49,173 bases of DNA from an uncultured Rickettsiales bacterium (GTDB lineage: Bacteria > Pseudomonadota > Alphaproteobacteria > Rickettsiales > UBA8987), in NCBI GenBank assembly GCA_964424715.1, contig CAYRJW010000003.1:1-49173 (forward strand). Direction: 5' to 3'. Shown here piece by piece: positions 11,617 to 44,037 of the stretch. Under the pieces are notes generated by a model that was not told the DNA's origin, ran no database searches, and was given only the letters and a program-made list of their open reading frames with translations. Position numbers and translations under genes: made by a program. Positions within the stretch are counted from its first letter, which is position 1. Each line of letters begins with the position of its first letter.

Positions 11617-11655
11617 AAAAAAAGCCTGACCATTTGATAATAGCCAGGCTTTTTA
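11617..11655 (-). terminator. intrinsic-terminator-like attenuator hairpin between precursor gene and MNIO gene
   Basis: Minus-strand RNA reads AAAAAGCCUG-16 nt-CAGGCUUUUUUU and is followed directly by the bufB ATG. The only purine-rich SD-like sequence (CAGG) lies in the 3' arm of the stem. Confidence 0.6.
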
Positions 11656-11677
11656 AAAATATAATAATTATTTAAAA

Positions 11678-11956: not shown

Positions 11957-12063
11957 ATCCTCTCCTTATTGTTAATAGACAGCATCTATTATCAAATACT
12001 GCCTTATCAAGTCCTATAGATATTTATTTTAAGTACAATATGTTTTTGAAAGCAGAGCAATAA

Positions 12064-14013: not shown

Positions 14014-14034
14014 TTTATTTCCTATTAATTCAAA

Positions 14035-28389: not shown

Positions 28390-30249
28390 ATGCTACTTAC
28401 ACCACAGAACGAGGCAGAATTCTATTTATACTCCATCACCAAAAGCCGTGATTTCTGGCGCAGTTCCTGCGAGGCATTAGGAATAGTATTTAAAAACGAT
28501 TTTAAACTGACCAACGAAAATATAGTAGATGCCACTAACCCAAAACACCCAAAATGGTTCACCGGAGCAGCACTCAATATCGCCGATAGCTTTCTTAAAA
28601 AAGCAAAAACAAATCCTGATAAGATAGCTATAATTTACGAAGATGAATCCACTAAGAAAAAAAATATAACCTACCGCGAACTTGATGAATTAAGCAATAA
28701 ATTCGCCAATGCACTGCAAGATAGCGGCATTAAGAAAGGCGATCACATCGGGCTATGCACTGCAGGTATGAATGTGGAATCAATCGCCGCATATCTGGGT
28801 GCAATGAAGTTCGGTGCAACCATAGTATGCCTTCTGCCAACCTCCCAGAAAAGTGAATTGCAGTTGCGCATAGACCAGTTGCCTGCAAAACCAAAACTCA
28901 TGGTAACGCAGGATTACGGTAATAAAAATAACAACCGGCTGCACCCTTTATATGAGAATATCCGTGAACTCGGAATTCCCTCTATCGTGATAAATGATAA
29001 TTCTCTAAAACCAGTGACCATTCGTGAAAATGATAAGACCTTCAATGAATTCATTAATGCTGCTTCGGAAAAATTTGAATCTGCTTCCTTATCACCGGAA
29101 CATCATGTGGCGGTACTATTCTCCTCTGGAACAACCGGAACACCCAAAGCCATCCCGTGGTTTGCCGATTGTTATATAAAAAGCGCCAATGATGGCAGGC
29201 TGCACCATCTGATGAACGACAATGATATTCTCTGCTGGCCAAGCAATTTCGGCTGGATGATGGGTTCTTTTGATATCGCTTCGGCATTTATTAATGATGC
29301 AACCCTTGCAGTGTTTGAGGGCAACCCGGTAAGCAGGAATTTTGCTGCCTTCATCGAAAAGAACGAGATCACGAAATTCGGCATCATACCCGCCTTCGCC
29401 GAAGCGTGGGAAAGAACCGGCCTGTTCAGAAAACGTGATATCACTACAGTAAAGATATTCATGTCGACCTCAGCCGCATCGAACCCGGAAAATTACAGAT
29501 ATATACAAAAACTTCTTAACAATGCGCATCCATGCGAATATTCCGGCGGCACAGAAATTGCAGGCGCTCTGAATACATGCCTGCCTTACTCTCCGGTCGG
29601 CGCTTCAGAATTCAACACTCCCGCCTTCGGTACAAAACTACATTTTATCCCGCATGCAGAAAATAATAACCTTGCCGACCTGTTCATAGTTGTTTCCAAT
29701 AAGGGTGGATATACTCCGCCAATGGGCCTTTCAAGGATTCTGCTGAACAAAGACCATGAAAAAGAATATTTCACCGGTGAAACAAACAGTAATGGCGAAG
29801 CGCTGAGAAAGCACGGCGATACAGTAAATTTCACCGGCAAAATTTTCTCCGGCGATATTGAAGATATAAATGATCTGAGATTCACCTCCTCCGGCAGAGC
29901 CGATGACATAATAAATATAAACGGCAATAAAGTTGGGGCGGATATTCTGGAAGGCTGGATAAGAACAGGTATAAAAGGAAAATCTTCCGAATCCATGATC
30001 GCAGATCTCGCCGTTTTCCAGACCGAGCCTGCATTTGGAAATAAGGTAATATTCTATGTAATGATCAATAAAACCCCCGGAACTGAAAACCCGAAGGACA
30101 TAATCACCAGAGAATTCAAGGATGCCATAAAGGTCAATAATGCCTTATTCGCCGCTATCGATGATATTGTATTTGTCGATAAGATCTCTAAAATGGGTTC
30201 CAAGGTACAAAGAAAGGAAATGAGAAAGAATTACAACCCAAGATCATAG
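28390..30249 (+). CDS. AMP-dependent synthetase/ligase (acetyl-/acetoacetyl-CoA-synthetase-like)
   Basis: 619 aa. WFTGAALNIADSFL N-terminal block, AMP-binding motif LFSSGTTGTPKAI, YSGGTEIAG, SSGRADD. Substrate not inferable. Confidence 0.75.
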   Translation: MLLTPQNEAEFYLYSITKSRDFWRSSCEALGIVFKNDFKLTNENIVDATNPKHPKWFTGAALNIADSFLKKAKTNPDKIAIIYEDESTKKKNITYRELDELSNKFANALQDSGIKKGDHIGLCTAGMNVESIAAYLGAMKFGATIVCLLPTSQKSELQLRIDQLPAKPKLMVTQDYGNKNNNRLHPLYENIRELGIPSIVINDNSLKPVTIRENDKTFNEFINAASEKFESASLSPEHHVAVLFSSGTTGTPKAIPWFADCYIKSANDGRLHHLMNDNDILCWPSNFGWMMGSFDIASAFINDATLAVFEGNPVSRNFAAFIEKNEITKFGIIPAFAEAWERTGLFRKRDITTVKIFMSTSAASNPENYRYIQKLLNNAHPCEYSGGTEIAGALNTCLPYSPVGASEFNTPAFGTKLHFIPHAENNNLADLFIVVSNKGGYTPPMGLSRILLNKDHEKEYFTGETNSNGEALRKHGDTVNFTGKIFSGDIEDINDLRFTSSGRADDIININGNKVGADILEGWIRTGIKGKSSESMIADLAVFQTEPAFGNKVIFYVMINKTPGTENPKDIITREFKDAIKVNNALFAAIDDIVFVDKISKMGSKVQRKEMRKNYNPRS

Positions 30250-30401: not shown

Positions 30402-30441
30402 GGGGACGTAGCTCAGCTGGATAGAGCAAGTGATTCCTAAT
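30402..30441 (+). pseudogene. 5' half of tRNA-Arg(CCU), truncated after the anticodon loop (attL side)
   Basis: ggggacgtagctcagctggatagagcaagtgattcctaat is identical to nt 1-40 of the intact copy at 31701-31777. Similarity ends at 30442. Confidence 0.9.
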
Positions 30442-30602
30442 GGGCGGGTCTAAAACTTGTATCTAGTTGTTTTTATATAAGAATTTAGATGCAGTTATAA
30501 GCCCAAGATGTAAAAGTAAGGTAATGGTAAGGTTTATTGTCGGAAGGTTTGCAGTATTAAAAATACTACACCAGAATGTTAATCTTACCAGTAACGATGA
30601 GG

Positions 30603-31652
30603 TTATATAACAATTTCAGGAGGTTCTCCTACTGGCAAATTTAGTTCCTCAGAATTTGTATATTGTATTCTACCATCATCAAAAACTTTCTTGATAGATG
30701 CTAACTTAACCTTAAAGCCATGTCGCAATATATACTTACCAAATTCCCTTAAATAATTATCATTAGATTTGGCTTTACACAAGTTAATGAGCTCTTTTCC
30801 AACGCCTGTTAAATTAAAAGATTGTATCTCTAATTTTTTAGAAGGATCATCATCTTCAATAATTAAAACTCTGTCTTTACTTGTTAAAGAGCTTAGAAAC
30901 CTATCACTAGCCAAAGAGATAAATTCATTGTTCAATGCTATAGACTCTACCCCAACTAAAACTCCTATTTCTTGCATTTTTAATAATAAACTATAGGGGA
31001 TTCCATTTGAAGCTAACCATTTATCATCTCGATAAACTATTCCAGACACAGCAAAAGGGGCAAGTCGGGCAACATCTTCGGCATCTTTTTGTGATGCATT
31101 TTTTAAAAATTCTAGAGTTCTCAGTGAAAAACTGCCAGGGACTTTTGTTTCTCCCGCCAACACTTTACCCCAAAGACTTTGAAGGTCTTCGGAAGATACC
31201 TTGCTTGCACAATCCCGCCAACGATGAATCCAATCATCATTAATCGGCATTTCTGAGGGCTCCTCTTGGTCATTCTCAAGCTCTGCCTCAGCTACTAATA
31301 TAGCCTTAGCAACATTAACTTCTTTTCGTATTTCATTAATAATATTTTGAGAATTTATAGCTTTAGTCAAAAAATCTCTTTCCATAATTTGTTCTGGTAT
31401 TTTATCTGATGGTAAAACTTTTTTTGATTTATCAGATAATAGTCTAATACTTAAATCATTTTCTAAAACAGCTTTACCTTGCCTTATATCTTCAGCAATT
31501 TTTTCAGCCTGAGCTATTCTAAGTGTATTCTCTACCTGGACATCAGTTATAGCTTCGCCTACTCGACGTATTTGTCTAGGCTCTAACCAGCCACCAATGC
31601 CATTATCAACACAAGAGCGCCACATTTTAATCATTAATTTCTGACCAAGCAT
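30603..31652 (-). CDS. DUF2806-like hypothetical protein (island cargo)
   Basis: 349 aa. The block PINDDWIHRWRDCASKVSSEDLQSLWGKVLAGETKVPGSFSLRTLEFLKNASQKDAEDVARLAPF matches my recollection of the DUF2806 core. The N-terminal half looks coiled-coil. It starts 48 nt downstream of, and is co-oriented with, the intact tRNA. Confidence 0.55.
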   Translation of the reverse strand: MLGQKLMIKMWRSCVDNGIGGWLEPRQIRRVGEAITDVQVENTLRIAQAEKIAEDIRQGKAVLENDLSIRLLSDKSKKVLPSDKIPEQIMERDFLTKAINSQNIINEIRKEVNVAKAILVAEAELENDQEEPSEMPINDDWIHRWRDCASKVSSEDLQSLWGKVLAGETKVPGSFSLRTLEFLKNASQKDAEDVARLAPFAVSGIVYRDDKWLASNGIPYSLLLKMQEIGVLVGVESIALNNEFISLASDRFLSSLTSKDRVLIIEDDDPSKKLEIQSFNLTGVGKELINLCKAKSNDNYLREFGKYILRHGFKVKLASIKKVFDDGRIQYTNSEELNLPVGEPPEIVI

Positions 31653-31700
31653 AATATTAACCTTAATTACGAAGTAATAATAAATAATATATTATTGAAA

Positions 31701-31777
31701 TGGTGGGAACGAGATGATTCGAACATCCGACCTAGTGATTAGGAATCACTTGCTCTATCCAGCTGAGCTACGTCCCC
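31701..31777 (-). tRNA. tRNA-Arg (anticodon CCU), intact, CCA-encoded, inside the element
   Basis: The reverse complement folds as a 77-nt cloverleaf: acceptor ggggacg/cgttccc (one G-U pair), D arm gctc/gagc, anticodon arm agtga-ttCCTaa-tcact, variable aggtc, T arm ggatg-ttcgaat-catct, discriminator a, then cca. Confidence 0.93.
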
Positions 31778-31967
31778 AGAGACTTAGTTTCGCGAAGCTA
31801 TACCAAATATTATAAAATGCAATTTTAAACTTAGTAATTTTTTCTTTTATACCTGCATTTATGGCAGTTTTTAGCGATATTTCTTATAAAATCATCTATA
31901 AGAACAAACCCCTTTAACTTTCAAAAATTTCAAACTATGGTTGAAACCGAAGCGTATTATGCGCTTT

Positions 31968-32138
31968 GGGGCGTAAGAACCTCACTTAGTTCGGCAGTAG
32001 CATCTGCCGTTATCAAACTGCCATCTCAACCTTGGTTGGGGTGGTGGCGTTATATAATAGGCTCGCGCTGAAAGCGTCACGGTCATGACTAAGTGACTTC
32101 TTAACACCCCGGCACCATTGCGAAAAAGCACTGGTGCT
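31968..32138 (+). ncRNA. candidate structured RNA or 5' leader upstream of the island lipoprotein gene
   Basis: A long closing helix of about 21 bp (31968-31990 with 32088-32110) encloses hairpins CGGCAG-tagcat-CTGCCG (31992-32009) and CCATCTCAAC-cttg-GTTGGGGTGG (32021-32044). The latter has two G-U pairs that are valid only on the + strand. A further hairpin GCACCATTGC-gaaaaa-GCACTGGTGC (32112-32137) follows. Class unknown. Confidence 0.45.
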
Positions 32139-32167
32139 GATTGTTATAAACAATAAGGGAGTTCGAG

Positions 32168-32788
32168 ATGATCATTACAAAAAAATTAGTTCCTACAATT
32201 ATATTAACAGTTGCCCTTTCTGGTTGCGTGAGCAAAGGCTGGAATGTTTCGCATCTCCATGACGAATTTACCAATGATAATATTTGTAGGGTAGAGCGGA
32301 ATAGTCCTGAAATGCGCGAGTTTGCAAGAAATTGGACTAGGACATTTTTTTCTTCCTACTTTTTTGCTGAAAAATATAACGATCAGGTGCGGGCTGGTAT
32401 AAGATCCGAGCCGCAAATACCGATAGCTGGCGATGTGCAGATAAAAATTGGCAGTAAGCTGGTAACACTGACATCAGATGATACGCCGATAGATGTAGCA
32501 CCTCATATACCTCAATACAAAATGAGTAAAGAGGTTGAGAAAACCTTGGGTGCTGGTTTTAATACCAGCATGAAACAAATGACCGATAGCATCCAAAAAT
32601 TAGGATCACCCTATAGAGCCTTGACCGGACAGAAAGCGATAAACCTGTTACGGGATATGGCAAATACCCAAGGGGAAATAAAATATAGAACCGTGGGGTT
32701 CAATTCCGCGCTATCGACCACTGGTACTATAACCACTGGTCCGGAATTCGTTAAGGCGTTAAACGAATGTGGTATAGATATTAACTAG
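32168..32788 (+). CDS. hypothetical lipoprotein (island cargo)
   Basis: 206 aa. Lipobox LTVALSGC-VSKG and an AAGGGAG RBS 7 nt upstream of the ATG. No family recognised. Confidence 0.6.
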   Translation: MIITKKLVPTIILTVALSGCVSKGWNVSHLHDEFTNDNICRVERNSPEMREFARNWTRTFFSSYFFAEKYNDQVRAGIRSEPQIPIAGDVQIKIGSKLVTLTSDDTPIDVAPHIPQYKMSKEVEKTLGAGFNTSMKQMTDSIQKLGSPYRALTGQKAINLLRDMANTQGEIKYRTVGFNSALSTTGTITTGPEFVKALNECGIDIN

Positions 32789-32969
32789 CACATTCTTATT
32801 TTAACGGCGCTACAGCTATGGTTTTTGCTTTTTACAACCCACCCTACTGGAAGATAGATAAAGTTAGCCAGCGAGGAGAAAAGCCTGCCATTAACTTTAT
32901 CCAACTCTCACGCGCGCGTATAGTAAAAACCCCTAAGTATATAAAGTTAGTTTATCTGGTTGATACACC

Positions 32970-33041
32970 TAGTGCCCCTCAATTTCTTAAAAATTTTTTA
33001 AAGATTAAGAATTAAAATTAATTTAATATTGAGGGGCACTA
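32970..33041. repeat. 14-bp perfect inverted repeat with AT-rich 44-nt spacer between convergent genes
   Basis: tagtgcccctcaat (32970-32983) and attgaggggcacta (33028-33041). Lies between the lipoprotein stop and the primase stop. Confidence 0.6.
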
Positions 33042-33055
33042 AAATTAGGGGGTAC

Positions 33056-35257
33056 TTAAAAAACTTCAGGGTCACGCAGTTCCTGATTTTGTTCTTCTTT
33101 GTTACCTTTAACATATGCCCATTCAGGCTTACCCCCAAATCTTTTCTTCTCTCTGGTCCAACCTAATTCTCTCATAATATCGCCGATACGTTTATTATGT
33201 TCGTAATTCCTGTGTGATATTGGTATTTCAAGGATATCCCAAATATTTTGAGTTCTGATTTTACCAGTTCTATCACCTAATTTATCAGATAATATTTGTA
33301 GATATGGATCTTCAATTCTTCTTGCTGCCTGTTCTTCAGCGGCCATTGAATATAATGATGGATCAAGCCTAATAGAATACCCTTGGGCTTCTAGATGAAC
33401 TGCTTCAGCCCATAGTTGATCCCTGTCTTGCTTTAACATTTCAATATCAAATTTACCAACTTTAACTGGCCAAAACCTCCTATTACCTGTATTATCAGTC
33501 AGGTATTTATCACTATTTGTTGTACCTACTATTATACACTGCCTTGGCATCTCAGTTGTTAATCTGGCATATGCAAGCCGAGATTTATCTACACTTCTGG
33601 ATAAAAATGATTTTAAGCTTTCAGTATCAGCTTTTCTTAGGCCCTGTAGTTCGCCCGCCTCGATAATCCAGTGCCCTGCCATAGACTCCATTAAGCGTTT
33701 TGTATCCATATTAAAGGGAAGATCATCACTAAACCATTCTGGGTTTACTGCTAAAATTCTAAGAGCTGTAGATTTTAATTGACCCTGCTTACTTTCCAAA
33801 ATCACCATTTCATCAAACTTACACCCAGGTCGTTTTATGCGCCTTACAGCAGCTACCAAAAGAATTTGTCCTATCTTTCTATTAAGCTCTGTGTCTTCCG
33901 CTCCAGCATATTTAACCAACCAATTATCAGTTCTATTTACTCCATCCCAATTCAAAGTTTGGAAATAGTCTTCTACAGGGTGAAAACTGTTTGCCCTAGC
34001 CTGATCTTCAATAATCATCCAAAAAAAGTTTTTATCTAATTTAAAACCAAACTCTTTTTCAATTTTTAAATATATTCTAGCAACTGCTGCATCATCCAGA
34101 TAATTACCAAATCCCTCTAATCCTTCAATTAGCTGCCTATTAGAAAATTTATCATAGCTAAGCTTAATACCTAGTTTTCTAAGAGCTATTAAAACATTTT
34201 CCTGATTTTTAACTATCTTACCACCTCTATCAACAATGAAAGATTGGGTATCTATTAAGATTTTTTCTTTAGCTCGCTGTATCTGCCTGATTGCGTATTT
34301 TTCATGGTTTTTATTTTCTAACACACTCTCTGATATAGCATATCTTTTATCTGTAATAATCGAATATACAACATTATCAGGTACATTGCCCCTAACCAAG
34401 TTGCAAACCACATCAAATAACCAAGCCGATCTTGAACTGTCGTTTTCTTTTGGATTATCAGGATCATGTCCCTGTACTATTATGACTTTTATTCTATCAT
34501 CTATATTCCATTTATTTAGATCATCAATAGAATTTAATATGTGAATTTCAAGATCGCTTGAGATAGATATTTTTTCCTCTGAAGACTTGTTTTCTGTAGC
34601 CTTTGAAAATTGTTCTAGGCCATAAACATTATTTTCATTAAAGTGAACCAATGAAGCAACGCGAGGTAATCTGCCTCTTTTAATTTTCTTTGCGTCGGGT
34701 ATATTTAAAGTTCCAGGTAACCGCATAAGGCGGTCTACATTGTGGCAGTTATCAGCATTGAACACTTTTTCTATGTACTTGTTATAAAGTTTTGTCTCTT
34801 CAGCCAACTTTATATTACCGTTAATTGGTATTGGTTCCTTTAACTCCCAGAAAGCCTGATATCCACCCCCTGAAAAAATAATATAAGTTGGCTCAGGAAT
34901 TCCTTGAGGCCTTTTATCAGTTAAGAGTGAATATATCCTTTTAATTTCTGATTCAAGATCAGCGCCCGCTTTGGCATCAATATCAACATGTAAATAGTCA
35001 ACTTGTTTAATGTCTTCACGGCTTGCTTTACTGTATAAATTCCTGAGAACAGTATTAACATGATAATATAGATTATCTTTACCATTATGCCTATCTAACC
35101 AACTATTACATTTATCATAATCTTTTGGATAAAAAGTTTCGGTTGTAATTTTCTTTTTATCTAACTGTATAGCACTTAAAACCCAAGGGCCATTGGGGTG
35201 AAATATTTTTAAGAAATCTATAACTTGTTTATTATCTGGTTTTAAAGAATTATTCAT
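33056..35257 (-). CDS. AEP-type primase-polymerase fused to a VirE/VapE-family (P-loop) domain
   Basis: 733 aa. N-terminal AEP motifs YLHVDIDA (DxD), FSGGGYQAFW and DRLMRLPGTLN. C-terminal VirE-like block CIIVGTTNSDKYLTDNTGNRRFWPVKV. Confidence 0.85.
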   Translation of the reverse strand: MNNSLKPDNKQVIDFLKIFHPNGPWVLSAIQLDKKKITTETFYPKDYDKCNSWLDRHNGKDNLYYHVNTVLRNLYSKASREDIKQVDYLHVDIDAKAGADLESEIKRIYSLLTDKRPQGIPEPTYIIFSGGGYQAFWELKEPIPINGNIKLAEETKLYNKYIEKVFNADNCHNVDRLMRLPGTLNIPDAKKIKRGRLPRVASLVHFNENNVYGLEQFSKATENKSSEEKISISSDLEIHILNSIDDLNKWNIDDRIKVIIVQGHDPDNPKENDSSRSAWLFDVVCNLVRGNVPDNVVYSIITDKRYAISESVLENKNHEKYAIRQIQRAKEKILIDTQSFIVDRGGKIVKNQENVLIALRKLGIKLSYDKFSNRQLIEGLEGFGNYLDDAAVARIYLKIEKEFGFKLDKNFFWMIIEDQARANSFHPVEDYFQTLNWDGVNRTDNWLVKYAGAEDTELNRKIGQILLVAAVRRIKRPGCKFDEMVILESKQGQLKSTALRILAVNPEWFSDDLPFNMDTKRLMESMAGHWIIEAGELQGLRKADTESLKSFLSRSVDKSRLAYARLTTEMPRQCIIVGTTNSDKYLTDNTGNRRFWPVKVGKFDIEMLKQDRDQLWAEAVHLEAQGYSIRLDPSLYSMAAEEQAARRIEDPYLQILSDKLGDRTGKIRTQNIWDILEIPISHRNYEHNKRIGDIMRELGWTREKKRFGGKPEWAYVKGNKEEQNQELRDPEVF

Positions 35258-35258
35258 A

Positions 35259-35558
35259 TTAGTTACCTTTTATTTTTTGATTAATTGTGTTGGTTTTTGA
35301 ATTTTTAAGCATGAATTCATCGAGGTGCTCGCGCTTGTAACGAACCGCCTGACCACAATTAATTTTTATAAATTGCGGTCCTTGTCCTGTAATGCGCCAG
35401 CTTTCAAGGCGCTGTTTGCTTAAATTAAGATACTTTGCAGCTTGTTCTGTATTGAGATATTCAGTTTGAGAAAAAGAATTATCTTGTATCCTCTTTACTG
35501 CTTCCTCAATTGATCTTTGAATGAACTTTTCAATTATTGAATAATCGATACTTTGCAT
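35259..35558 (-). CDS. AlpA/excisionase-family helix-turn-helix DNA-binding protein
   Basis: 99 aa. YLNTEQAAKYLNLSKQRLESWRITGQGPQFIKINCGQAVRYKREHLDEFM is the excisionase-type HTH pattern. Located 1 nt upstream of the primase gene. Confidence 0.75.
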   Translation of the reverse strand: MQSIDYSIIEKFIQRSIEEAVKRIQDNSFSQTEYLNTEQAAKYLNLSKQRLESWRITGQGPQFIKINCGQAVRYKREHLDEFMLKNSKTNTINQKIKGN

Positions 35559-35841
35559 ACACTACTCCTACTAACTTTATTAGACCATTGTCGCGGGTCT
35601 GTTAGTAGCAGAGGTAGATAGTATGCTATTCACATAGTGAACTATCTCGTTACGCTTTTTCAGTAACAAAGGGTCAGGATTCCTCTCTTCTTATGACATG
35701 AAGTTGCCGATACATGCAGTGCCTGCCATGCAGCTCGGGTTATTAGCCTATGTACATCGGCATTTAGAATACCATCACTATCGTGTAAAGAAGTTTTTTA
35801 ATCATTTGAATTTTATTTTTCTGACGAATCAGAAATGCATC

Positions 35842-37035
35842 TTATACTGTTGTAAACTGTATTATGCCCATCTTCTGCTTCAAATAATCCGCCACTTTTT
35901 GCTGTTGCACGGCAAGGTGCTGAATGTCTTGCTTGATGTAGCCAGCGGTAACGGTGCTCTTTGCAGGGCGGTGATTCGTTAGCACTTCTATGTCATATGG
36001 TGACAGTCCTGCGCTGTTAGCAGCAGTGGTGTATGTATCGCGCAGCCTGTGCGGTGATGGCAAGCCACGCTTATTTTCTTTTGGCTCTCGAAGATGCGTT
36101 ATATTACCGTTAATATCGCGCGTAGGAAATAGCCACTCACAATCTTTGCCAAACAATATTTCGTTTTCTACTCTTCTGCGTTTTAATATCTCAATGCATA
36201 TATCTGGTAATGGTATTGTAAAAGCGCGCTCCTTGCCGCCCTTAGGATTTGGGCGGTGTAGCGTACCTGCTTCAATATTTACATCCTTCCAGTTTATTGT
36301 GCAGGTATCCGTTCTTCTAAGCCCAGTGAAGATAAGGAAAAACTGAAAATCCCTTCTAAGGATGTTAGGCATCTTCATCACTTTTGTGTACCATTCTTGT
36401 AATTTATCAGCTTCTATTGGTTCTTGCTTGCGATATTCTTTGTACCACTGAACCGCTATAGATGGATTTGGTGGCAGCAGTTCATCTTCTTTCATGGCGG
36501 TGTTGTACACGGCACGAAATAACCTCATTGCATGGTTGGCAACATAATGCCCGTGATTAGTGCCAATATAACTATGCAGTTGTCTAATTTCTGCTCTGGT
36601 TAAACTTGCTAGACTTCTGTTTTTTATTTTCTGCAAATAATCTTTTATAAGTTTTTCGTAACCGAAAATTGTTCTGGCAGATGCATTCTTGCGCTTCATC
36701 GCTTCCTTGTGCATTTCCCAAGCTTCATCAAATGTAATTTGCTTAACTTCAATTTCTTTCTCTTTTTTCTTAGCTGCTATGTCTATGCCTTTGTCTAAAA
36801 ACAGCAGCCTTTCTCTTGCTTCTCTTTTTGCTTCGTCAACTGTCCATACACCATAACGGCCAATTTTATTTCTGATTGTTTTGCCGTTAATATCGCGTTG
36901 CACAATAAAAGTTTTAGAATCTTTGCCAGCCTTCAACCCAAAGCCTTTGAGCTCAGTATCCCAATACAAAAGGTATCTAGCATTGCCCAAAGAAATGCTA
37001 TCTATGTTCTTTTTTGTAAGTTTCAGCAGCGGCAT
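35842..37035 (-). CDS. int: tyrosine-type site-specific integrase (P4-like, DUF4102 arm-binding N-terminus)
   Basis: 397 aa. N-terminal LYWDTELKGFGLKAGKDSKTFIVQ (DUF4102-like). Catalytic residues in GLRRTD (R), HRLRDTY (HxxR) and HRPAKSTVTAGYI (H...Y). Confidence 0.9.
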   Translation of the reverse strand: MPLLKLTKKNIDSISLGNARYLLYWDTELKGFGLKAGKDSKTFIVQRDINGKTIRNKIGRYGVWTVDEAKREARERLLFLDKGIDIAAKKKEKEIEVKQITFDEAWEMHKEAMKRKNASARTIFGYEKLIKDYLQKIKNRSLASLTRAEIRQLHSYIGTNHGHYVANHAMRLFRAVYNTAMKEDELLPPNPSIAVQWYKEYRKQEPIEADKLQEWYTKVMKMPNILRRDFQFFLIFTGLRRTDTCTINWKDVNIEAGTLHRPNPKGGKERAFTIPLPDICIEILKRRRVENEILFGKDCEWLFPTRDINGNITHLREPKENKRGLPSPHRLRDTYTTAANSAGLSPYDIEVLTNHRPAKSTVTAGYIKQDIQHLAVQQQKVADYLKQKMGIIQFTTV

Positions 37036-37413
37036 GTATTTCTCCTTTTCTGAACAAAATTATTGTTCAGAGGTCGAGGAAAGCAATGAAAACCGGAGAG
37101 TTCACAACTTCCTTCAGCCAAAACTTTTTAATATACATGTTTTTAACCCAATCAACATGTTTTTTGTTCATCAGGATTTAAGAATTAGTGACAAATGGAA
37201 GGGTAAGATATTGTTATAGAATGGTTTTAAAATTCGGCGACTTTGACACAGTTAAACTTTAGAAGCGGATTTTTTTAGTTAACTTATGTTTATAAGAAGG
37301 TACTTTTTCATTATTAGGGCTTGTATGCTCAAAGTACTTCTGACTTTTGTTATATTCTATTGGAATTTGCAACTTGGGAGGGTATTATCAAGCGAATAGG
37401 GTGAGGGAAAATT

Positions 37414-39450
37414 ATGAAAAAGATTACATTAATTATTTTAGTCTATTTAATTACTTCTACTAATTGTAAGGCAGCAAATTTATTTGATAATGCAGACGAA
37501 AAGTTAGAAATACAAAAATATAACGCACAAGTACAAGATAGTTTTAATTCTATTTCAAAAACATTAAATCAGATAGACAGTCTGCAAGCAACGATGACTG
37601 TTAGCAGCAAATACAATGAAATTAAAAGTAGTTGTGCAGAATATGAAAAACTATACCAGAGTGCTAACGAGGGCAATGCAGAAGACCAATATGTTTTATC
37701 TTTATTATATTTTGAAGGTATATGTTCTGAAAAAGATTCAAAAAAAGCTTTAGAATTTATGGAGCAATCGGCAGACAATGGCTATATTCTTGCCATTAAA
37801 GACGTTGCTCGCGCATATTATTCTGGTGAAGTTGTAGAACAAAATACGAATAAAGCCATTCAATATCTTGAAAAAGGGGATAAAATTAATGACCCAGAGT
37901 CTCAACAGCTATTAGCTGAAATATATCTTGATGCAAAAAATATAGTCAAAGATTTTAAGAAATCCGAAGAATATTTTATAAAATCATATGATAACGGGAA
38001 TAAAGAAGCTTCTGTTATACTTGCAGGAAATTACATAAAAGGGGCTTTTGGTAATACTGATTACAATAAAGCGTATAAATGGGCTCTGAAAGGGGCTGAA
38101 AATAATCTACAGCAAGCTTATTACCTTTTATCAGCCATGACATATGATCCTACATATAAAGTAGATGCTGTAGAAAGCCTAAAGTGGGCATACTTGTCGG
38201 CACAAGGTACAAATGAAAAAATTAGTGAGGAAGCTAAAAAACGTATTACAATTTTTGAAAAGAATTTTACATCTGAACAAATTTTAGTAGCTCAAAAGTT
38301 AAGTAAAAAATGGATTAATAAATTTGACATTACAGCAAATATTGAAGATGAAAATCCTCTGCCAAATATTAATGGCGTTTCAATAGAAAATCTAAATCAA
38401 GAATCTGCCAGAGCATTGTTATTAAATAATAATATTAAGTTAACCTCAAAGAACTTCGGCAAGAGTGTATCTGAAAATAATCTTAAAGTTTTTAAAGTTT
38501 TCGAAATTGCAGGCGCGGATATATCTATGCCAATCCCAACTAATTGGTACGCAACCCCATTATTAATTGCTGTTGATTATAACTCTAAAGAAGTTTTTGA
38601 TTATTTAATAAATAAAGTTGATAAAAAATCTATTGATTCAAAAAATCAAAGTGGTTTCACAGCTCTTCACAGAGCTGTTGCGCATCGTAGAATTGAAATG
38701 ATAGACAAATTACTAGAACGTGGGGCAGACGTTAATAATCAATCTGTAGGTCTTATAAACGAATCTATACTATCTTATGCCATCTCTGACAAAGACGAAG
38801 ATGAATTGGTAAAAAAACTTTTAGATGCTGGAGCAAAACCAAATACTTTTGGTAGTACAGGTAATACACCAGCAATATCTGCTATTAGTGCAGGAGCTCC
38901 AAAAAGCTTATCATTACTTATAAAAGCGGGTGCTGATTTAAATAAAGTGAAAGAAAAGAATACAATAATAAATGCTTTGAAAGATACAAAAAGTAATTTA
39001 CCTGAGATTATTGCAGTTATAAAACAAAGCAACTACCAACCGACTAAGCAATTAAAATGTGAAGATCTATTTTACTCAATATTCAAGAATAATGGCGTAC
39101 TTTCAAACTATTTTATAAATAATGCTAATGATGTTGACTGTAAATTTACTGATACAGGCTCAACAGTACCAACGAATGAACAATCTAATGCTGAATTAAT
39201 GGATATAGCTAGGAATGAAGGTACTCCTTTATTTTTAGCAATATATAAAGATAATTTGGCTACTGTTAAAGAAATATTAAAACATAACCCGAGCCTTACA
39301 CATAAAGTATCTATTCTGGGCAAAAAGTTAAACGCGCTAGAGTATGCTAAGATAAAAAATAATAAATTTATTATTCAAAATATCGAAGAAGTTTCCAAGA
39401 AACCGTGGAATAGGTTAAAGGCTTTAAAGAGCAGTCTATTCAACAATTAA
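37414..39450 (+). CDS. secreted Sel1-like-repeat plus ankyrin-repeat protein (eukaryote-like repeat effector candidate)
   Basis: 678 aa. Signal peptide MKKITLIILVYLITSTNCKA. Several Sel1/SLR units (e.g. NAEDQYVLSLLYFEGICSEKDSKKALEFMEQSADNG). C-terminal ankyrin units (GFTALHRAVAHRRIEMIDKLLERGADVNN; GNTPAISAISAGAPKSLSLLIKAGADLN). Confidence 0.8.
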   Translation: MKKITLIILVYLITSTNCKAANLFDNADEKLEIQKYNAQVQDSFNSISKTLNQIDSLQATMTVSSKYNEIKSSCAEYEKLYQSANEGNAEDQYVLSLLYFEGICSEKDSKKALEFMEQSADNGYILAIKDVARAYYSGEVVEQNTNKAIQYLEKGDKINDPESQQLLAEIYLDAKNIVKDFKKSEEYFIKSYDNGNKEASVILAGNYIKGAFGNTDYNKAYKWALKGAENNLQQAYYLLSAMTYDPTYKVDAVESLKWAYLSAQGTNEKISEEAKKRITIFEKNFTSEQILVAQKLSKKWINKFDITANIEDENPLPNINGVSIENLNQESARALLLNNNIKLTSKNFGKSVSENNLKVFKVFEIAGADISMPIPTNWYATPLLIAVDYNSKEVFDYLINKVDKKSIDSKNQSGFTALHRAVAHRRIEMIDKLLERGADVNNQSVGLINESILSYAISDKDEDELVKKLLDAGAKPNTFGSTGNTPAISAISAGAPKSLSLLIKAGADLNKVKEKNTIINALKDTKSNLPEIIAVIKQSNYQPTKQLKCEDLFYSIFKNNGVLSNYFINNANDVDCKFTDTGSTVPTNEQSNAELMDIARNEGTPLFLAIYKDNLATVKEILKHNPSLTHKVSILGKKLNALEYAKIKNNKFIIQNIEEVSKKPWNRLKALKSSLFNN

Positions 39451-39458
39451 ACTGATTT

Positions 39459-39752
39459 ATGACACAGAAAAAGCAAAACGAGTATGTAGATGTTTATTAT
39501 GGGATACATATGGGCACATTTGAAGTCATGTCTGTATGGGTAACTAGAGGCGGCAAAATGTCTTGCGGAGCACATACTCATACTATTATGCCAGGACGTA
39601 ATATAGTAAGTGAGCTTATTATAGTTTTTAATATCGCCGATGCAGTTAGTATTCGTCCTGAAGATTTACAAAAAGACTTTGCAAAGCAGATAAAAGCTGA
39701 CCTTGAAATTAAAGCTCAGGAAATGAAAAAAGCAAAGCTTGGTAAAAAGTAA
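39459..39752 (+). CDS. hypothetical small protein (island cargo)
   Basis: 97-aa ORF starting 8 nt after the Sel1/ankyrin gene stop, on the same strand. Lys-rich C-terminus. No family recognised. Confidence 0.45.
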   Translation: MTQKKQNEYVDVYYGIHMGTFEVMSVWVTRGGKMSCGAHTHTIMPGRNIVSELIIVFNIADAVSIRPEDLQKDFAKQIKADLEIKAQEMKKAKLGKK

Positions 39753-39770
39753 GGTAATGGTAAGGTTGCG

Positions 39771-39873
39771 GTTTAAAAGATGGGGTGTATAGTTTAAAAC
39801 GGTAACTGAGAGATTTTGGATAAAAACCTTGTTTTGAATGGTGGTTTAAAAGTGAGCTATGCCAGTTTAAAAG
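39771..39873 (+). promoter_or_regulatory. four phased GTTTAAAA(G/C) repeats next to attR (candidate recombinase/Xis arm-type sites)
   Basis: Copies at 39771, 39792, 39844 and 39865, forming two pairs with exact 21-bp spacing. The last copy ends 12 nt before the att core. Confidence 0.4.
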
Positions 39874-39885
39874 CCGAATACAGCC

Positions 39886-39931
39886 ATTCCTAATCACTAG
39901 GTCGGATGTTCGAATCATCTCGTTCCCACCA
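39886..39931 (+). pseudogene. 3' half of tRNA-Arg(CCU), from the anticodon loop to CCA (attR side)
   Basis: attcctaatcactaggtcggatgttcgaatcatctcgttcccacca is identical to nt 32-77 of the intact copy. Its first 9 nt repeat the last 9 nt of the 5' half at 30433-30441. Confidence 0.9.
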
Positions 39932-40000
39932 TTTCAGTAACCTTACCGGTCAATCTTCATATTTGCGGGCTATAGGAATTGATACCCTGTTTCACCAAAC

Positions 40001-40146
40001 AGTATAAAATTCTAAATTTTGAACTTCAAACCAATACCAGTTTCAGTGATGATATATTTTGGTTTTAACGGGTCATCATTAAGTTTTTACGAAGATGTTG
40101 GGTGTGAATACGCAGGTAGTTATTATTCTCTGGGGTGTATCTATTG
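40001..40146 (-). pseudogene. decayed duplicate of the kdpE 3' end (last ~45 codons plus ~13 nt downstream)
   Basis: Aligns by eye with 44231-44377. It translates as NRYTPENNNYLRIHTQHLRKNL, then after a 1-nt deletion reads ...KPKYIITETGIGLKFKI, against DRYTPENNNYLRIHTQHLRKKLNDDPLKPKYIITETGIGLRFKI in kdpE. The stop codon is lost. Confidence 0.8.
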
Positions 40147-40377
40147 TAGTTTGTTATGAAGATATGTTTCTGGAGTTTTTGTGGACTGTGTTGGATTGAT
40201 ATTTTGGTGACCCAACGTTGTAAATCAATATACTGTAAGCGGTTGAACTAGATTAACTTTTTAGCGCTTTTAAATAATCCCTAGCCGTTGTTATAATGAC
40301 TTGAAACATAGGTTGCAAGCCGACTATAACGAATACACATGAACTTTATCGTTAATTTATAAAAAGTATATGAACTA

Positions 40378-40413
40378 TTGACATACTAAAATATATCTAT
40401 ATATCTAGATATA
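40378..40413 (+). promoter_or_regulatory. putative ars promoter with palindromic ArsR operator
   Basis: TTGACA at 40378-40383. The 14-bp perfect palindrome TATATCTAGATATA at 40400-40413 abuts and overlaps the arsR ATG, so there is no obvious SD (short or leaderless 5' UTR). Confidence 0.4.
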
Positions 40414-40751
40414 TGGATATAAATAAAGCAATAACATCATTTTCGGCATTATCACAGGAAACCAGACTTAGAGTATTCAAGGCGCTTGTTGAATATGGTG
40501 AATCTGGGGCTGCCGCTGGTGTGCTTAGTAAGCATTTGGGTATAGTTCAAAATACACTTTCATTCCATTTATCATATCTTAGCCATGCCGGGTTAATATC
40601 ATCCCGTAAGGATGGCAGATCTATTATCTACAAAGCTAACTATAAGGTTATTGAAAACCTTATTGGCTACTTACAGGAAAACTGCTGCGTTCTTGAACCG
40701 TCAAAAGATTGCTGCCCACCAATTAAAACAACGAAAAGGAGAAAGAAATGA
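40413..40751 (+). CDS. arsR: ArsR/SmtB-family metalloregulator
   Basis: 112 aa. LSQETRLRVFKALV...LSKHLGIVQNTLSFHLSYLSHAGLISSRKDGRSIIY winged helix. C-terminal vicinal cysteines ENCCVLEPSKDCCPP. Confidence 0.88.
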   Translation: MDINKAITSFSALSQETRLRVFKALVEYGESGAAAGVLSKHLGIVQNTLSFHLSYLSHAGLISSRKDGRSIIYKANYKVIENLIGYLQENCCVLEPSKDCCPPIKTTKRRKK

Positions 40752-41203
40752 AACTTTCAGATGTTAAAAAAGCATTACCACAATTGTCCGCCGTGAATTT
40801 CAAATTACCAGATGGATCACATGTTCCGCAACATTTCCATGTTACAGAGGTTGGACTGGTTACAAAGCATTTTATCGATTGTGGTGGCGTGGAACGCAAA
40901 GAAACGGTTGTAAATTTCCAGTTATGGGAAGCAGGTGACTATGACCACCGTCTGGCACCGCAGAAATTTCTCAAAATACTGGATATTTCTAAGAAAGTTT
41001 TGGGTGAAGCCGAAGATTTGAATATTGAAGTTGAATACCAGCAAAGCACTATTGGTAAGTTTGATCTTGAATTTGATGGTAAGGATTTTATTTTGAGATC
41101 CAAGCAAACATCTTGTTTAGCTCAAGATGCCTGCGGTATCCCCCCAGAAAAAATGCCTAAAAAGGCGGCCACCAATTGTTCACCTAAAACCGGATGTTGC
41201 TGA
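40748..41203 (+). CDS. DUF6428-family protein (ars-operon associated)
   Basis: 151 aa. PDGSHVPQHFHVTEVGLVTKHFIDCGGVERKETVVNFQLW matches my recollection of DUF6428 proteins found between arsR and arsC. Cys-rich tail CSPKTGCC. The start overlaps the arsR stop. Confidence 0.6.
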   Translation: MKLSDVKKALPQLSAVNFKLPDGSHVPQHFHVTEVGLVTKHFIDCGGVERKETVVNFQLWEAGDYDHRLAPQKFLKILDISKKVLGEAEDLNIEVEYQQSTIGKFDLEFDGKDFILRSKQTSCLAQDACGIPPEKMPKKAATNCSPKTGCC

Positions 41204-41682
41204 TGAACATTCTAGTACTTTGTACTCACAACTCTTGCCGCAGTGTCATGGCAGAAGGATTGTTGCAACATTATGGCAAGGGCAAGTTTAAAGCTTATTC
41301 CGCAGGTAGTTTCCCATCTGGGAAAATAAACCCAAAGGCCTTAGAAATCCTACGAAAAAATAATATATGTGCTGACTATAACAATTTCAAAAGCCAGAGC
41401 TGGGATGATTTCGAAAATATTAAAATGGATATTGTTATAACCGTTTGTGATCAAGCTGCAGGTGAAAGCTGTCCATTATTTTTAGGTTCTGCTATAAAAG
41501 CACATTGGGGAGTTGAAGACCCATCAGCAATAAAGGGCAGTAAAACTCAAGTTGATATGGCATTTCAGAAAGTGTTTAAGATATTGGAAAAAAGAGTAAT
41601 TACTCTAACAAACTTAGATATTAAAAACTTAGATAAAGAAGAGCTTAAGTCCAGGCTTAATAAAATAGGTAAAGAGATATAG
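41194..41682 (+). CDS. arsC: arsenate reductase, LMW-PTP/thioredoxin-coupled type
   Basis: CX5R P-loop LCTHNSCRS plus downstream Cys pair VCDQAAGESCP. The alternative in-frame ATG at 41203 overlaps the upstream stop (TGATG) and may be the true start. Confidence 0.88.
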   Translation: MLLMNILVLCTHNSCRSVMAEGLLQHYGKGKFKAYSAGSFPSGKINPKALEILRKNNICADYNNFKSQSWDDFENIKMDIVITVCDQAAGESCPLFLGSAIKAHWGVEDPSAIKGSKTQVDMAFQKVFKILEKRVITLTNLDIKNLDKEELKSRLNKIGKEI

Positions 41683-41685
41683 TTT

Positions 41686-42711
41686 ATGACCAATAACAAT
41701 TCACCGCTTGGTTTTTTTGAGAGATATTTATCAGTTTGGGTTGGTTTATGCATTCTGGCTGGCGTTTTTCTAGGACATTTACTGCCTTCTGTCTTTCAGG
41801 CCATTGCACATCTTGAGTATGCAAATGTAAATTTCGTTATCGCTGTTTTTATATGGTTGATGATATATCCAATGATGGTGAATGTCGACTTTTCTAACCT
41901 GAAAGAAGTTACAAAAAAGCCAAAAGCGTTCCTAATAAGTTTTATAGTTACTTGGTTAATTATGCCGTTTAGCATGGCAGCACTTGGGGTTTTATTCCTA
42001 CAGCATATTTTTGCGGACTTGATACCAGCTGATGATGCAAAACAATATATTGCAGGTCTGATACTTTTAGGTGCCGCACCTTGTACAGCTATGGTATTTG
42101 TATGGAGTAGGCTTGTAAATGGTAACGCCAATTATACATTGGTTCAGGTTGCGCTTAATAATGTTATCATGATTTTTGCTTATGCGCCAATAGTTGCCTT
42201 TCTTCTTGGTGCCGCAGATATAATAATTCCTTGGAATACCCTTATTCTATCGGTAGTTTTATATGTTTTAATTCCGATGCTTACAGGCTATTTTACTCGA
42301 AAGAACCTACCAGAACAAAAACTAAAATCGTTTTTACACCATTTAAAACCTTATTCGGTTATTGGTCTACTTGCCACGGTTGTTTTACTGTTTGGTTTTC
42401 AGGCGGAAACTTTATTACAAAAACCGCTTGTTATAGCAATGATAGGTGCTCCTATAGTACTTCAAAGCTTCCTGATGTTTGGGCTAGCATACTTTTTAAT
42501 GTACAAAGCAAAGATACCTCATAACATTGCAGCTCCAGCGTCTTTTATTAGTGCCTCTAACTTCTTTGAACTTGCAGTTGCGGTAGCTATCAGCCTGTTC
42601 GGTCTTAATTCTGGCGCAGCACTTGCAACAGTTGTTGGTGTTTTAGTTGAGGTTCCTGCTATGCTATGGCTGGTTGGTATTGCTAATAAAACTAATAAAC
42701 ATTTCAAATAA
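41686..42711 (+). CDS. acr3: ACR3-family arsenite efflux transporter
   Basis: 341 aa, about 10 TM segments. Conserved GLILLGAAPCTAMVFVWS motif containing the essential Cys. Confidence 0.9.
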   Translation: MTNNNSPLGFFERYLSVWVGLCILAGVFLGHLLPSVFQAIAHLEYANVNFVIAVFIWLMIYPMMVNVDFSNLKEVTKKPKAFLISFIVTWLIMPFSMAALGVLFLQHIFADLIPADDAKQYIAGLILLGAAPCTAMVFVWSRLVNGNANYTLVQVALNNVIMIFAYAPIVAFLLGAADIIIPWNTLILSVVLYVLIPMLTGYFTRKNLPEQKLKSFLHHLKPYSVIGLLATVVLLFGFQAETLLQKPLVIAMIGAPIVLQSFLMFGLAYFLMYKAKIPHNIAAPASFISASNFFELAVAVAISLFGLNSGAALATVVGVLVEVPAMLWLVGIANKTNKHFK

Positions 42712-43412
42712 TGAGAAATCTTGGTTTACACAAAGAAATGCATCTTGTTGCAAGAGTTGGCTGGCTAAGAGCAGCTGTGCTTGGTGCTAATGATGGACTG
42801 ATCTCTACTGCAAGCTTGATAATGGGTGTTGCTGCAGCATCCGCAAGTAAAGGTGATATAGTTATCGCTGGTGTTGCGGGACTATTCGCCGGAGCACTTT
42901 CAATGGCGGCGGGAGAATATGTCTCTGTCAGCTCGCAGTCTGACACTGAAACAGCAGATATAGCCCGAGAGACAAAGGAACTAAAAGATAATCATGAGTT
43001 TGAAATGAATGAGCTTACGGATATCTATGAAAAACGCGGATTAGATAAAGAGCTTGCAAGAAAAGTGGCTGAGCAGCTAATGAAAAAAGATGCCCTACTT
43101 ACTCATGCACGTGATGAACTTGGAATAACAGATTTTAGTAAGGCGAACCCCATACAAGCGGCCATTACCTCTGCCATAACATTTACTGTTGGGGCGGCCC
43201 TACCTTTGCTAATGGTGGTAATATCTCCATTAGATATGATAACAACCACTGTTTCTGTAGCATCTCTGTTTTTTCTCTCGGTACTCGGTGCGGTTGGTGC
43301 AAAAGCAGGAAAGGCAAATATCTTAAAGGCTACCATTCGTGTTACATTCTGGGGAGCATTTGCTATGGCTGTTACAGCGATTATTGGTAAATTATTTGGT
43401 GCGGTCGTTTAG
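42711..43412 (+). CDS. VIT1/CCC1-family iron/manganese transporter
   Basis: 233 aa. AAVLGANDGLISTASLIMGVAAA, GEYVSVSSQSD and a C-terminal TM bundle. The start overlaps the acr3 stop (TAATG). Confidence 0.8.
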   Translation: MRNLGLHKEMHLVARVGWLRAAVLGANDGLISTASLIMGVAAASASKGDIVIAGVAGLFAGALSMAAGEYVSVSSQSDTETADIARETKELKDNHEFEMNELTDIYEKRGLDKELARKVAEQLMKKDALLTHARDELGITDFSKANPIQAAITSAITFTVGAALPLLMVVISPLDMITTTVSVASLFFLSVLGAVGAKAGKANILKATIRVTFWGAFAMAVTAIIGKLFGAVV

Positions 43413-43488
43413 CTTAATTATAAAAAGCATAATACGATTAATTGATAAAAATCAATGAAATAACAATATTATAAAATATAATTACAAT

Positions 43489-44037
43489 ATGAACATCATG
43501 AATCGCATACGCCTCTATCACGCAACCCTCGCTAGTTTATCTATACTCGCATATGTTACGGGAGAAGTTGGCATCATTCACTCTTGGCTTGGTTATGGGG
43601 TTGCCTTAGTTATAGGTTTCCGTTTGCTATGGGCATTAAGTGGCGAGCGTCAGGTTGGGCTTATGCGTTTCTATCCTTCCTTTGAAGGTCTGCGTTTTGA
43701 TAATGCTTTCACCCATCCATCAGTTAGCAAGTGCCTGATGCTTGGCATTGCAATAAGTGTGATCGCGGTAACATCAACCGGTATAGCTATAGATAAGGGA
43801 AAGGCAATTGGTATAAGTAATGCAGAATTAGTTAAAAGTGCTTATGCGGATGATAATGAGCACAAAAATAAAAAGAAACACAAAGATTTTTTAGATGAAG
43901 TTTTAGAAGAAACCCATGAGCTTTTTGCAAATCTGATGTTACTTTTTGTGGGTATGCATATCACTTATATTATTTTATTTAAGCGCCCATTGGCAAAATT
44001 TATGTTGTTTATGCCAAAAAGAAAGGACCAGAACTAA
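43489..44037 (+). CDS. small membrane protein, possibly cytochrome b561/Ni-hydrogenase b-type family
   Basis: 182 aa, about 4 TM segments with His residues in TM1/TM2 (IIHSWLGYG) and TM4 (FVGMHITY). Family assignment tentative. Confidence 0.35.
   Translation: MNIMNRIRLYHATLASLSILAYVTGEVGIIHSWLGYGVALVIGFRLLWALSGERQVGLMRFYPSFEGLRFDNAFTHPSVSKCLMLGIAISVIAVTSTGIAIDKGKAIGISNAELVKSAYADDNEHKNKKKHKDFLDEVLEETHELFANLMLLFVGMHITYIILFKRPLAKFMLFMPKRKDQN

Follow-up and report, generated by a model that had tools for sequence, protein, structure and literature searches.

Introduction

The P4-type integrases of tRNA-targeting islands reportedly use a sublocation in the anticodon loop, which Williams is said to have described in 2002. 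By the definition applied in Islander, a sequence within the island restores the tRNA gene that has been split (PMC4383910). A different solution, tRNA-dependent lysogeny, was described in actinobacteriophages including Fionnbharth, LeBron, Gaia, and others (Guerrero-Bustamante and Hatfull, mBio 2024; PMC10865867). In mycobacteriophages it was proven experimentally that integration through 8–17-bp cores leaves no rebuilt tRNA and that a cognate phage tRNA is needed for viable lysogens; close phage relatives with 43–49-bp cores do rebuild the tRNA gene, and the 2024 authors left open how prevalent the phenomenon is elsewhere (PMC10865867). Sequence-based cases include Lj965 of Lactobacillus johnsonii and the rhizobiophage vTRX32-1, with a 12-bp core in tRNA-Leu (PMC8631192), and Sinorhizobium prophages are further cases of this kind. 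Here we describe a 49,173-nucleotide stretch of DNA from an uncultured Rickettsiales bacterium (contig CAYRJW010000003.1; the whole stretch is referred to as the window), in which a tRNA-Arg(CCU) gene is split in its anticodon loop by a 9.45-kb integrative element carrying a complete copy of the same tRNA.

The window element resembles the systems of tRNA-dependent lysogeny in its tyrosine integrase with an arm-binding domain, in an attachment site (attB) that lies within a host tRNA gene and is used through a short core (9 bp here) with no tRNA rebuilt, in arm-type sites that flank the core, and in a tRNA of the same anticodon carried within the att-bounded insert. Long-core relatives that rebuild the tRNA occur in the same integrase family as well, here locus L026 and probably L001 (L numbers designate the loci compared). 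The vehicle differs, being no temperate phage and only ∼9.45 kb, so that the word lysogeny misfits though the mechanism fits. The host is a Rickettsiales-like alphaproteobacterial metagenome-assembled genome (MAG) rather than an actinobacterium, and the target is tRNA-Arg(CCU). The need for the tRNA in viable integrants was shown in phages and is presumed for the window element, as is expression of its tRNA. The tRNA of the window element retains the entire attB sequence and does not differ from the host gene, while the phage tRNA of vTRX32-1 lacks the core.

With canonical P4-type islands the element shares an integrase composed of Arm-DNA-bind_3 and catalytic domains, a crossover in the anticodon stem-loop, an excisionase gene (xis) beside the integrase gene (int), and arm sites. 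However, it restores no tRNA, and its ends are identical over 9 bp rather than ∼40–50 bp; canonical islands leave an intact tRNA and a displaced 3' fragment, whereas the window has displaced 5' and 3' fragments with neither end intact. P4-like and phage-inducible chromosomal island (PICI)-like satellites and tycheposons are similar in size (∼10 kb), in combining a tyrosine recombinase, an excisionase, and a primase/helicase, in targeting tRNA genes, and in having a free circular form (here L046). Tycheposons, which share the int-xis-primase vehicle, have canonical att sites of ∼40 nt with partial tRNAs beside a full-length one (bioRxiv 10.1101/2020.12.28.424599), in contrast to the 9-bp core here. 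Phage satellites are characterized in part by an integrase together with a replication initiator or primase of their own, and the window element encodes an integrase and a VapE primase-helicase; its satellite status as a whole is unproven.

Results

Two orphan tRNA pieces and a complete inverted copy

Direct comparison with the 77-nt tRNA-Arg(CCU) showed that the left orphan piece agrees with nt 1–40 up to a sharp stop at position 30442, and that agreement of the right piece with nt 32–77 begins at position 39886 (Table 1). The overlap of the two pieces is ATTCCTAAT alone (nt 32–40), which consists of the anticodon loop TTCCTAA and one base on either side. Inside the insert, on the opposite strand, lies a complete tRNA-Arg(CCU) that is 100% identical to both pieces and forms 7/7 acceptor and 5/5 anticodon-stem pairs. 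It was the single tRNA called in the window, as tRNA-Arg(CCT) by ARAGORN and as RF00005 by Rfam (66.2 bits); neither program called a tRNA at either junction, and nhmmer found no further tRNA-Arg(CCU) fragments in the window beyond these pieces. The similarity extends into two inverted repeats, one of 55 nt (31692–31746/39886–39940; 98% identity) that spans nt 32–77 and a 9-nt trailer with one mismatch, and one of 43 nt (30399–30441/31738–31780; 98%). We consider chance to be excluded for exact matches of 40 and 46 nt. The coordinates and identities that the initial annotation had assigned to the split pieces and the inverted copy were thus correct to the base; its observation that the pieces share just the 9-nt anticodon-loop string held up, and the flank similarity it had pointed out corresponds to the 55- and 43-nt repeats.

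We think it highly probable that this arrangement reflects disruptive integration through the 9-bp core, compensated by the element-borne tRNA-Arg(CCU). The P4-type tyrosine integrase would have recombined the attachment site of the element (attP) with the anticodon loop of the host tRNA-Arg(CCU) gene, and, judging from the integrase family and established integrase biology, strand exchange would have taken place within the 7-nt loop, between the symmetric stem arms. The host gene would have been left as two orphan pieces, nt 1–40 and nt 32–77, with the element tRNA taking over AGG decoding. AGG occurs at 6.2 per 1000 codons in the host and 10.6 per 1000 in the element, and because the host uses it at this frequency, an AGG decoder would be needed. 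A tRNA-Arg(UCU), which is able to read AGG in part, or a second tRNA-Arg(CCU) may be encoded elsewhere in the genome. By excising the element at the core, Int and Xis would rejoin the two pieces into an intact host gene, and the excised circle would presumably be replicated by the primase-helicase. That the element is mobile at present, and by what route it passes between cells, we infer.

Both junctions have the structure of att sites

A 23-nt motif, AAAAGTAAGGTAATGGTAAGGTT, occurs exactly twice in the 49-kb window (0.01 copies expected), both times on the plus strand and just inside a junction. Counted from the 7-nt loop, the left end reads loop-76 nt-arm and the right end arm-120 nt-loop. 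The right arm is ∼90% identical over ∼190 nt to the att arm of a relic element on L001, a contig of a related bacterium, in which the spacing is also 120 nt. An intact attP was available for comparison in L046, a circular contig (127-nt exact terminal overlap; circle of ∼9.93 kb) whose integrase is 54% identical to that of the window. L046 encodes int, xis, a D5_N/DUF5906 primase, and a Sel1-repeat protein, with no structural genes among its Pfam and PHROG matches. Its attP is uninterrupted (arm-119 nt-loop-77 nt-arm), the core shares with a tRNA just ATTCCTAAT, and a complete tRNA-Arg(CCU) lies ∼190 nt beyond one arm. Joined together, the window junctions (120/76) would rebuild exactly the attP architecture of L046. 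Because the arm motifs stand in direct orientation at the spacings of this intact attP, we take both junctions to be genuine integrase-made att sites. The attP and the tRNA have in common just the loop and one base on each flank, and therefore neither junction rebuilds the gene.

From these ends, the predicted attP of the window element is arm, 120 nt, ATTCCTAAT, 76 nt, arm, and the predicted circle junction is ...GCCGAATACAGCC-ATTCCTAAT-GGGCGGGTCTAAAAC.... The predicted empty site is an intact tRNA between ...AACTAACTTCC and TTTCAGTAACC....

The core is flipped relative to the arms in L046 (6860–7096) and in L045 (5589–5731), an integrated relative whose left att site (attL) aligns with the L046 attP from the core on with an arm-loop spacing of 119, when compared with the window (30434–30533 and 39750–39893), L002, and L004. 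The flipped core occurs within one integrase clade (54–58% identical to that of the window), and the arm-core spacings are kept within 1 nt. A near-palindromic anticodon stem-loop, together with the absence of any need to rebuild the tRNA, may allow such flipping.

Related elements share the split-plus-internal-tRNA design

Homologs of the integrase are 50–68% identical, and tRNA-Arg(CCU) genes or pieces of them are present on every one of their contigs that was fetched. The split-plus-internal-tRNA design recurs in each of the three related elements whose two ends both lie on a contig: one element represented by L002, L003, and L008 in two independent assemblies (L002/L003, from NCBI and Logan) and two further elements, L004 and L005, from JGI assemblies. 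Each has the int-xis-primase module and a complete internal tRNA-Arg(CCU), as L046 does as well, and in each the orphan 5' half ends at nt 40–49 and the orphan 3' half starts at nt 32–33. L002 and L004 have their own shared arm motifs, placed 73–74 nt past the attL core and 139 nt ahead of the core at the right att site (attR).

Stem pairing distinguishes the two genes in these elements. The orphan 5' and 3' halves of L002 form 7/7 acceptor and 5/5 anticodon-stem pairs with each other, and 5–6/7 and 4–5/5 when combined with the internal tRNA; those of L005 likewise form 7/7 and 5/5 together, and 4–5/7 and 3/5 with the internal tRNA. Pairing thus joins the orphans to one another rather than to the internal tRNA. 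The two orphans therefore derive from what was once the host's own gene, and the complete tRNA between them is an independent gene, consistent in itself, that arrived with the element.

Orphan 5' or 3' halves also adjoin int in MAGs of Planctomycetota and Myxococcota with more distant integrases (36–43% identity). A full tRNA-Arg(CCU) directly follows int in L019, L020, L054, and L068, and the orphan misfits its anticodon stem (2–3/5 pairs); L068 has an inverted layout with a tRNA different from the orphan half. A mirrored canonical model, in which the element supplies a 5' half and promoter and the 5' fragment lies upstream of int, was rejected on account of the same misfit of the orphan 5' halves with the anticodon stem of the full tRNA. 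L026 is a canonical case: its displaced 3' fragment pairs better with the 5' half of the intact gene (G1-C72) than does the gene's own 3' part (G1·U72), as would be expected of a rebuilt hybrid gene.

Some of these loci have peculiarities of their own. On the minus strand of L004 (16727–16952), two orphan 5' halves that differ from each other stand in a row at a distance of ∼130 nt, with two arm repeats (GGGTAGCA) between them. The arm motif AGCAAGGCTATAGCAAGGT is shared with the distal attR and belongs to the second 5' half (74 nt past its core and 139 nt ahead of the distal core). The distal 3' half (1491–1535) is chimeric, its anticodon stem fitting the second 5' half and its acceptor the first, and the internal tRNA is identical to one orphan 5' half. 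This looks like a second element that integrated into the tRNA of an earlier one, whose body was then deleted. A reverse transcriptase (RVT_1) open reading frame (ORF) at 11844–13352 of L004, flanked by the 200-aa backbone gene on one side and the tRNA of the element on the other, might represent a group II intron or a retron-type insertion. The L001 relic (10185–14044) is without an integrase; an intact tRNA-Arg(CCU) is followed 57 nt after its CCA by six tandem AAAAAGTAAGG repeats, and then by 3.7 kb encoding FUR, an ABC transporter, FtsX, and DUF3299, an arm, a core, and a 3' half.

Host relatives have the unsplit gene in a syntenic position

Left of the element lie murE, murF, mraY, corA, and an acyl-CoA synthetase gene (acs), and right of it an ars operon. 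Named MraY matches are 65–68% identical and other relatives up to 87%, and by MraY we place the host among uncultured Alphaproteobacteria allied to Rickettsiales. In L108, L109, and L111 MraY is 87% identical, and the order trxB-pth-murE-murF-mraY-corA is conserved at 65–90% amino-acid identity. In all three, tRNA-Arg(CCU) is unsplit and lies on the plus strand, 62 nt past corA; it is identical to that of the window at 75/77 positions, and the contig of L110 ends within the same gene. Since the unsplit gene stands at the syntenic place in these relatives, the split gene sits where the lineage keeps its tRNA-Arg(CCU); we base this match on synteny only, as the immediate flanks are not alignable.

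The tRNA-Arg(CCU) genes of three related hosts (the window, L108 at 13252–13328, and L001 at 13968–14044) differ only in one T-stem pair, 52:62, which is U-A in the window, G-C in L108, and A-U in L001, a compensatory substitution. L001 was dropped as a candidate for the nearest host relative and empty site; it shares only mraY-corA-acs with the window, and its tRNA locus is rearranged. The relatives chosen by MraY, L108–L111, took its place. L112 has a different gene context. acs sits between corA and the tRNA region in both the window and L001, and the window gene (28390–30249) is 56% identical to that of L001, compared with 81–86% for neighboring genes, and is absent from L108–L111. The lineage is variable in the segment downstream of corA. 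The right flank (39932–44037; arsR, DUF6428, arsC, ACR3, VIT1, and cytochrome b561) has a GC content of 37.7%, compared with 43% in the left flank. It has no counterpart beside the tRNA in L108, and no tRNA fragment within the window delimits it; this flank may have originated as an earlier island at that tRNA.

Evidence against disruptive integration and alternative explanations

Several findings weigh against disruptive integration with a replacement tRNA. Identity between the element tRNA and the split host gene is 100%, even at the 52:62 T-stem pair that differs in the two nearest host relatives, and homology to the host gene continues for 9 nt beyond the 3' end; for an imported tRNA one would expect differences such as those in L002, L005, and L068. 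Most likely, an element of restricted host range picked up its tRNA from this very host lineage, or the inverted copies have undergone gene conversion. In the L001 relic, whose arm is the most similar, the tRNA at attL is complete, and close relatives of the window element may rebuild the gene through a canonical attP, as L001 hints. A promoter scan found no consensus sigma-70 site upstream of either tRNA, which for the element tRNA is unfavorable; a perfect TATAAT 31 nt upstream of it was spotted by eye only. The locus is known from a single MAG contig of 55.9 kb, on which alone the tRNA-Arg complement was viewed. No empty site of this exact element was found, an exact search of species-representative genomes with tRNA nt 1–74 giving 0 matches, and its predicted attP junction (AATACAGCCATTCCTAATGGGCGGGTC), which would mark the circle, is absent from viral contigs.

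We considered three other explanations. Canonical integration followed by decay, whereby the attL tRNA was once rebuilt, the host or element gained a second tRNA-Arg(CCU), and the attL 3' half degenerated, is very unlikely. The 37 nt past the left core match tRNA nt 41–77 at 15/37 positions (p = 0.023), a marginal value on which we did not rely, and L001 has a real 3' half at that position; however, the 5' part is intact (40/40) and identity falls to background right after the core, as fits recombination, and we read the sequence that follows as something other than a tRNA 3' half. A short-core attP also exists as such in the free circular L046. Loss of a long core after acquisition of a tRNA has been discussed as an evolutionary route (PMC10865867), and decay is a possible account of how the attP of the element evolved, which is not a rival for the events at this locus. 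A chimeric MAG contig, or one mis-joined at repeated tRNA sequence, is the least probable explanation of all: a mis-join would preserve the repeat rather than leave two complementary fragments with exactly the anticodon loop in common, each junction is accompanied by an arm motif at the proper distance, and the same architecture is present in independent assemblies of other samples (L002/L003, L004, and L005), although the locus is one contig of an uncultured organism with no second assembly and does contain inverted repeats of 43–55 nt.

The initial annotation had raised a secondary rearrangement as its second reading, in which a canonical island with a rebuilt tRNA was later inverted, either by the integrase at the quasi-palindromic anticodon stem-loop or by RecA at the 43- and 55-nt repeats. 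These inverted repeats of tRNA pieces could support flipping, and the internal copy matches the host gene including its 9-nt trailer, resembling a canonical 55-bp attP identity block. Canonical integration, however, gives one 5' half and two 3' halves, as against two and two in the window, and no single inversion of a canonical island, when worked through, yielded two 5' halves. The observed isomer is the only one in which both arms are directly oriented and keep the 76/120-nt spacings known from an intact attP, and the tRNA of L068, in its inverted layout, is not that of the orphan half. Although the intact attL tRNA of the related relic L001 would suit an inversion, the tRNA of L046 is antisense to the attP core, as in the window, already before integration. 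The inverted orientation of the replacement tRNA is thus already a property of the free element and requires no later inversion, and we regard secondary rearrangement as extremely unlikely. The first reading of the initial annotation, disruption plus a replacement tRNA, is in turn supported by the att architecture, the related elements, and the unsplit host relatives. Its suggestion that the host would be tied to retention of the element went too far; because precise Int/Xis excision would rebuild the host gene, the element does not strictly qualify as an addiction module, and the host would come to depend on it only if the element were lost imprecisely or the orphan halves had decayed.

Gene content of the element

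The insert (30442–39885) and one copy of the 9-bp core make up the 9.45-kb element, whose features are listed in Table 1. Searches against Pfam and PHROGs recognized no phage structural, packaging, or lysis genes in the insert, and no capsid-redirecting, terminase, or other helper-exploitation genes, several ORFs being without annotation; a search of the viral contig collection likewise gave no real relative of the integrase clade. The element is a non-phage int-xis-primase/helicase backbone with cargo genes. GC content is 35.1% over the whole insert, 31.6–39.3% by segment, and 33.5% in the part from the DUF2806 gene to the tRNA, compared with 43–44% in the left host flank.

Table 1 Features of the split tRNA-Arg(CCU) locus and the integrated element.
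Feature	Coordinates	Strand	Basis
Orphan 5' part, host tRNA-Arg(CCU) nt 1–40; host side of attL	30402–30441	+	Exact match; nhmmer 5' fragment
Common core, first copy; last 9 nt of the orphan 5' part, ATTCCTAAT	30433–30441	+	
attL, element side (P' arm); 70-nt non-tRNA spacer, then 23-nt arm motif AAAAGTAAGGTAATGGTAAGGTT (30512–30534)	30442–30534	+	
DUF2806 protein, 349 aa; cargo, between attL and element tRNA	30603–31652	-	Pfam PF10987, E = 1e-29
Complete element-borne tRNA-Arg(CCU); probable replacement copy, inverted relative to the split host gene	31701–31777	-	ARAGORN; Rfam; stem pairing
206-aa protein; adjoins tRNA	32168–32788	+	phrog_20142, E = 9e-28
VapE-type primase/helicase, 733 aa	33056–35257	-	Pfam VapE-like_dom, E = 6e-75; PHROG DNA helicase/primase families
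Excisionase/HTH_17 protein, 99 aa	35259–35558	-	Pfam HTH_17 and Tn916-Xis; PHROG excisionase family
P4-type tyrosine integrase, 397 aa; N-terminal arm-DNA-binding domain	35842–37035	-	Pfam Phage_integrase, E = 7e-13; Arm-DNA-bind_3, E = 6.5e-10
Ankyrin and Sel1 repeat protein, 678 aa; cargo	37414–39450	+	Pfam Ank, Sel1; phrog_8741
97-aa ORF; cargo	39459–39752	+	No Pfam or PHROG match
attR, element side (P arm); second 23-nt arm motif (39745–39767), then 118 nt to core	39745–39885	+	
Orphan 3' part, host tRNA-Arg(CCU) nt 32–77; host side of attR; first 9 nt are the second core copy	39886–39931	+	Exact match; nhmmer 3' fragment

Homologs of the excisionase adjoin int in related loci, and the primase comes after xis in L002, L004, L005, and L046 as it does here; the VapE-type primase/helicase is presumed to be the replication module of the excised circle. 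The 206-aa protein is 39% identical to the 200-aa ORF at the corresponding place in L004 and possibly belongs to the backbone. Among the cargo, phrog_8741 is matched also by the Sel1 cargo protein of L046. The DUF2806 gene has a GC content of 34.4% (host, 43%), and its product has no PHROG match; the 97-aa ORF has neither a Pfam nor a PHROG match. Homologs of these two proteins are absent from all the related loci compared.

Discussion

The mechanism that we propose for this element is known; what is new is its non-phage vehicle, its tRNA target, and its cross-phylum spread. The initial annotation had called either of its readings unusual. This was too strong insofar as the design has a published precedent (PMC10865867). 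In an incomplete search of the literature we found no report of it for islands other than phages, for integrases of the P4 type, or for tRNA-Arg(CCU) as target.

A broader proposal, to which we give even chances, is that a cross-phylum clade of P4-type integrases is carried on ∼10-kb non-phage int-xis-primase elements for which disruption and replacement of tRNA-Arg(CCU) is the normal way of life, in hosts that include Rickettsiales-like Alphaproteobacteria, Planctomycetota, and Myxococcota. As part of this proposal, such an element would need the anticodon loop alone, which is nearly universal, and would so be freed from matching the acceptor and anticodon stems of the host. If the proposal is true, the attP core can flip relative to the arms (the window compared with L045 and L046), the element tRNA can sit in either orientation, and an imported tRNA can become the next attB, leading to serial nesting, as in L004, and to horizontal replacement of a core tRNA gene. 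Such replacement is implied by the design, and in L002, L005, and L068 the working tRNA-Arg(CCU) differs from the host original. A possible reason for carrying a whole tRNA is that pairing may fail in a hybrid whose 5' half comes from the host and whose 3' half is foreign, as illustrated by the G1·U72 wobble of L026; a complete tRNA gene would remove this limit on host range.

The window element and its relatives extend to small non-phage vehicles in other phyla a mechanism shown only in temperate phages, mainly those of Actinobacteria. Software that recognizes islands by an intact tRNA and a displaced 3' fragment is likely to overlook such elements or to set their limits wrongly. Integrases that need just an anticodon loop as attB could also serve as genetic tools.

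Two further sets of loci concern other tRNAs. Orphan tRNA-Gly(CCC)-like 5' halves (GCGGGCGTAGTTCAGTGGTAGAACG.CAGCTTCCCAA) are present in L024 (∼9820–9860), L028 (∼9743–9782), L032 (∼9745–9781), and L039 (∼9690–9726), where they end in the anticodon loop ∼250 nt upstream of more distant integrases that are 32–37% identical. No intact tRNA-Gly(CCC) was seen within the fetched flanks of these four loci, which may represent the same disrupt-and-replace design on another tRNA. In L060, a related integrase that is 39% identical is flanked by a 3' fragment on the minus strand (563–609) and a full tRNA on the plus strand (2029–2103) with the loop TTTACAC and the anticodon TAC, presumably a tRNA-Val, which hints that the inverted layout occurs at other tRNAs too.

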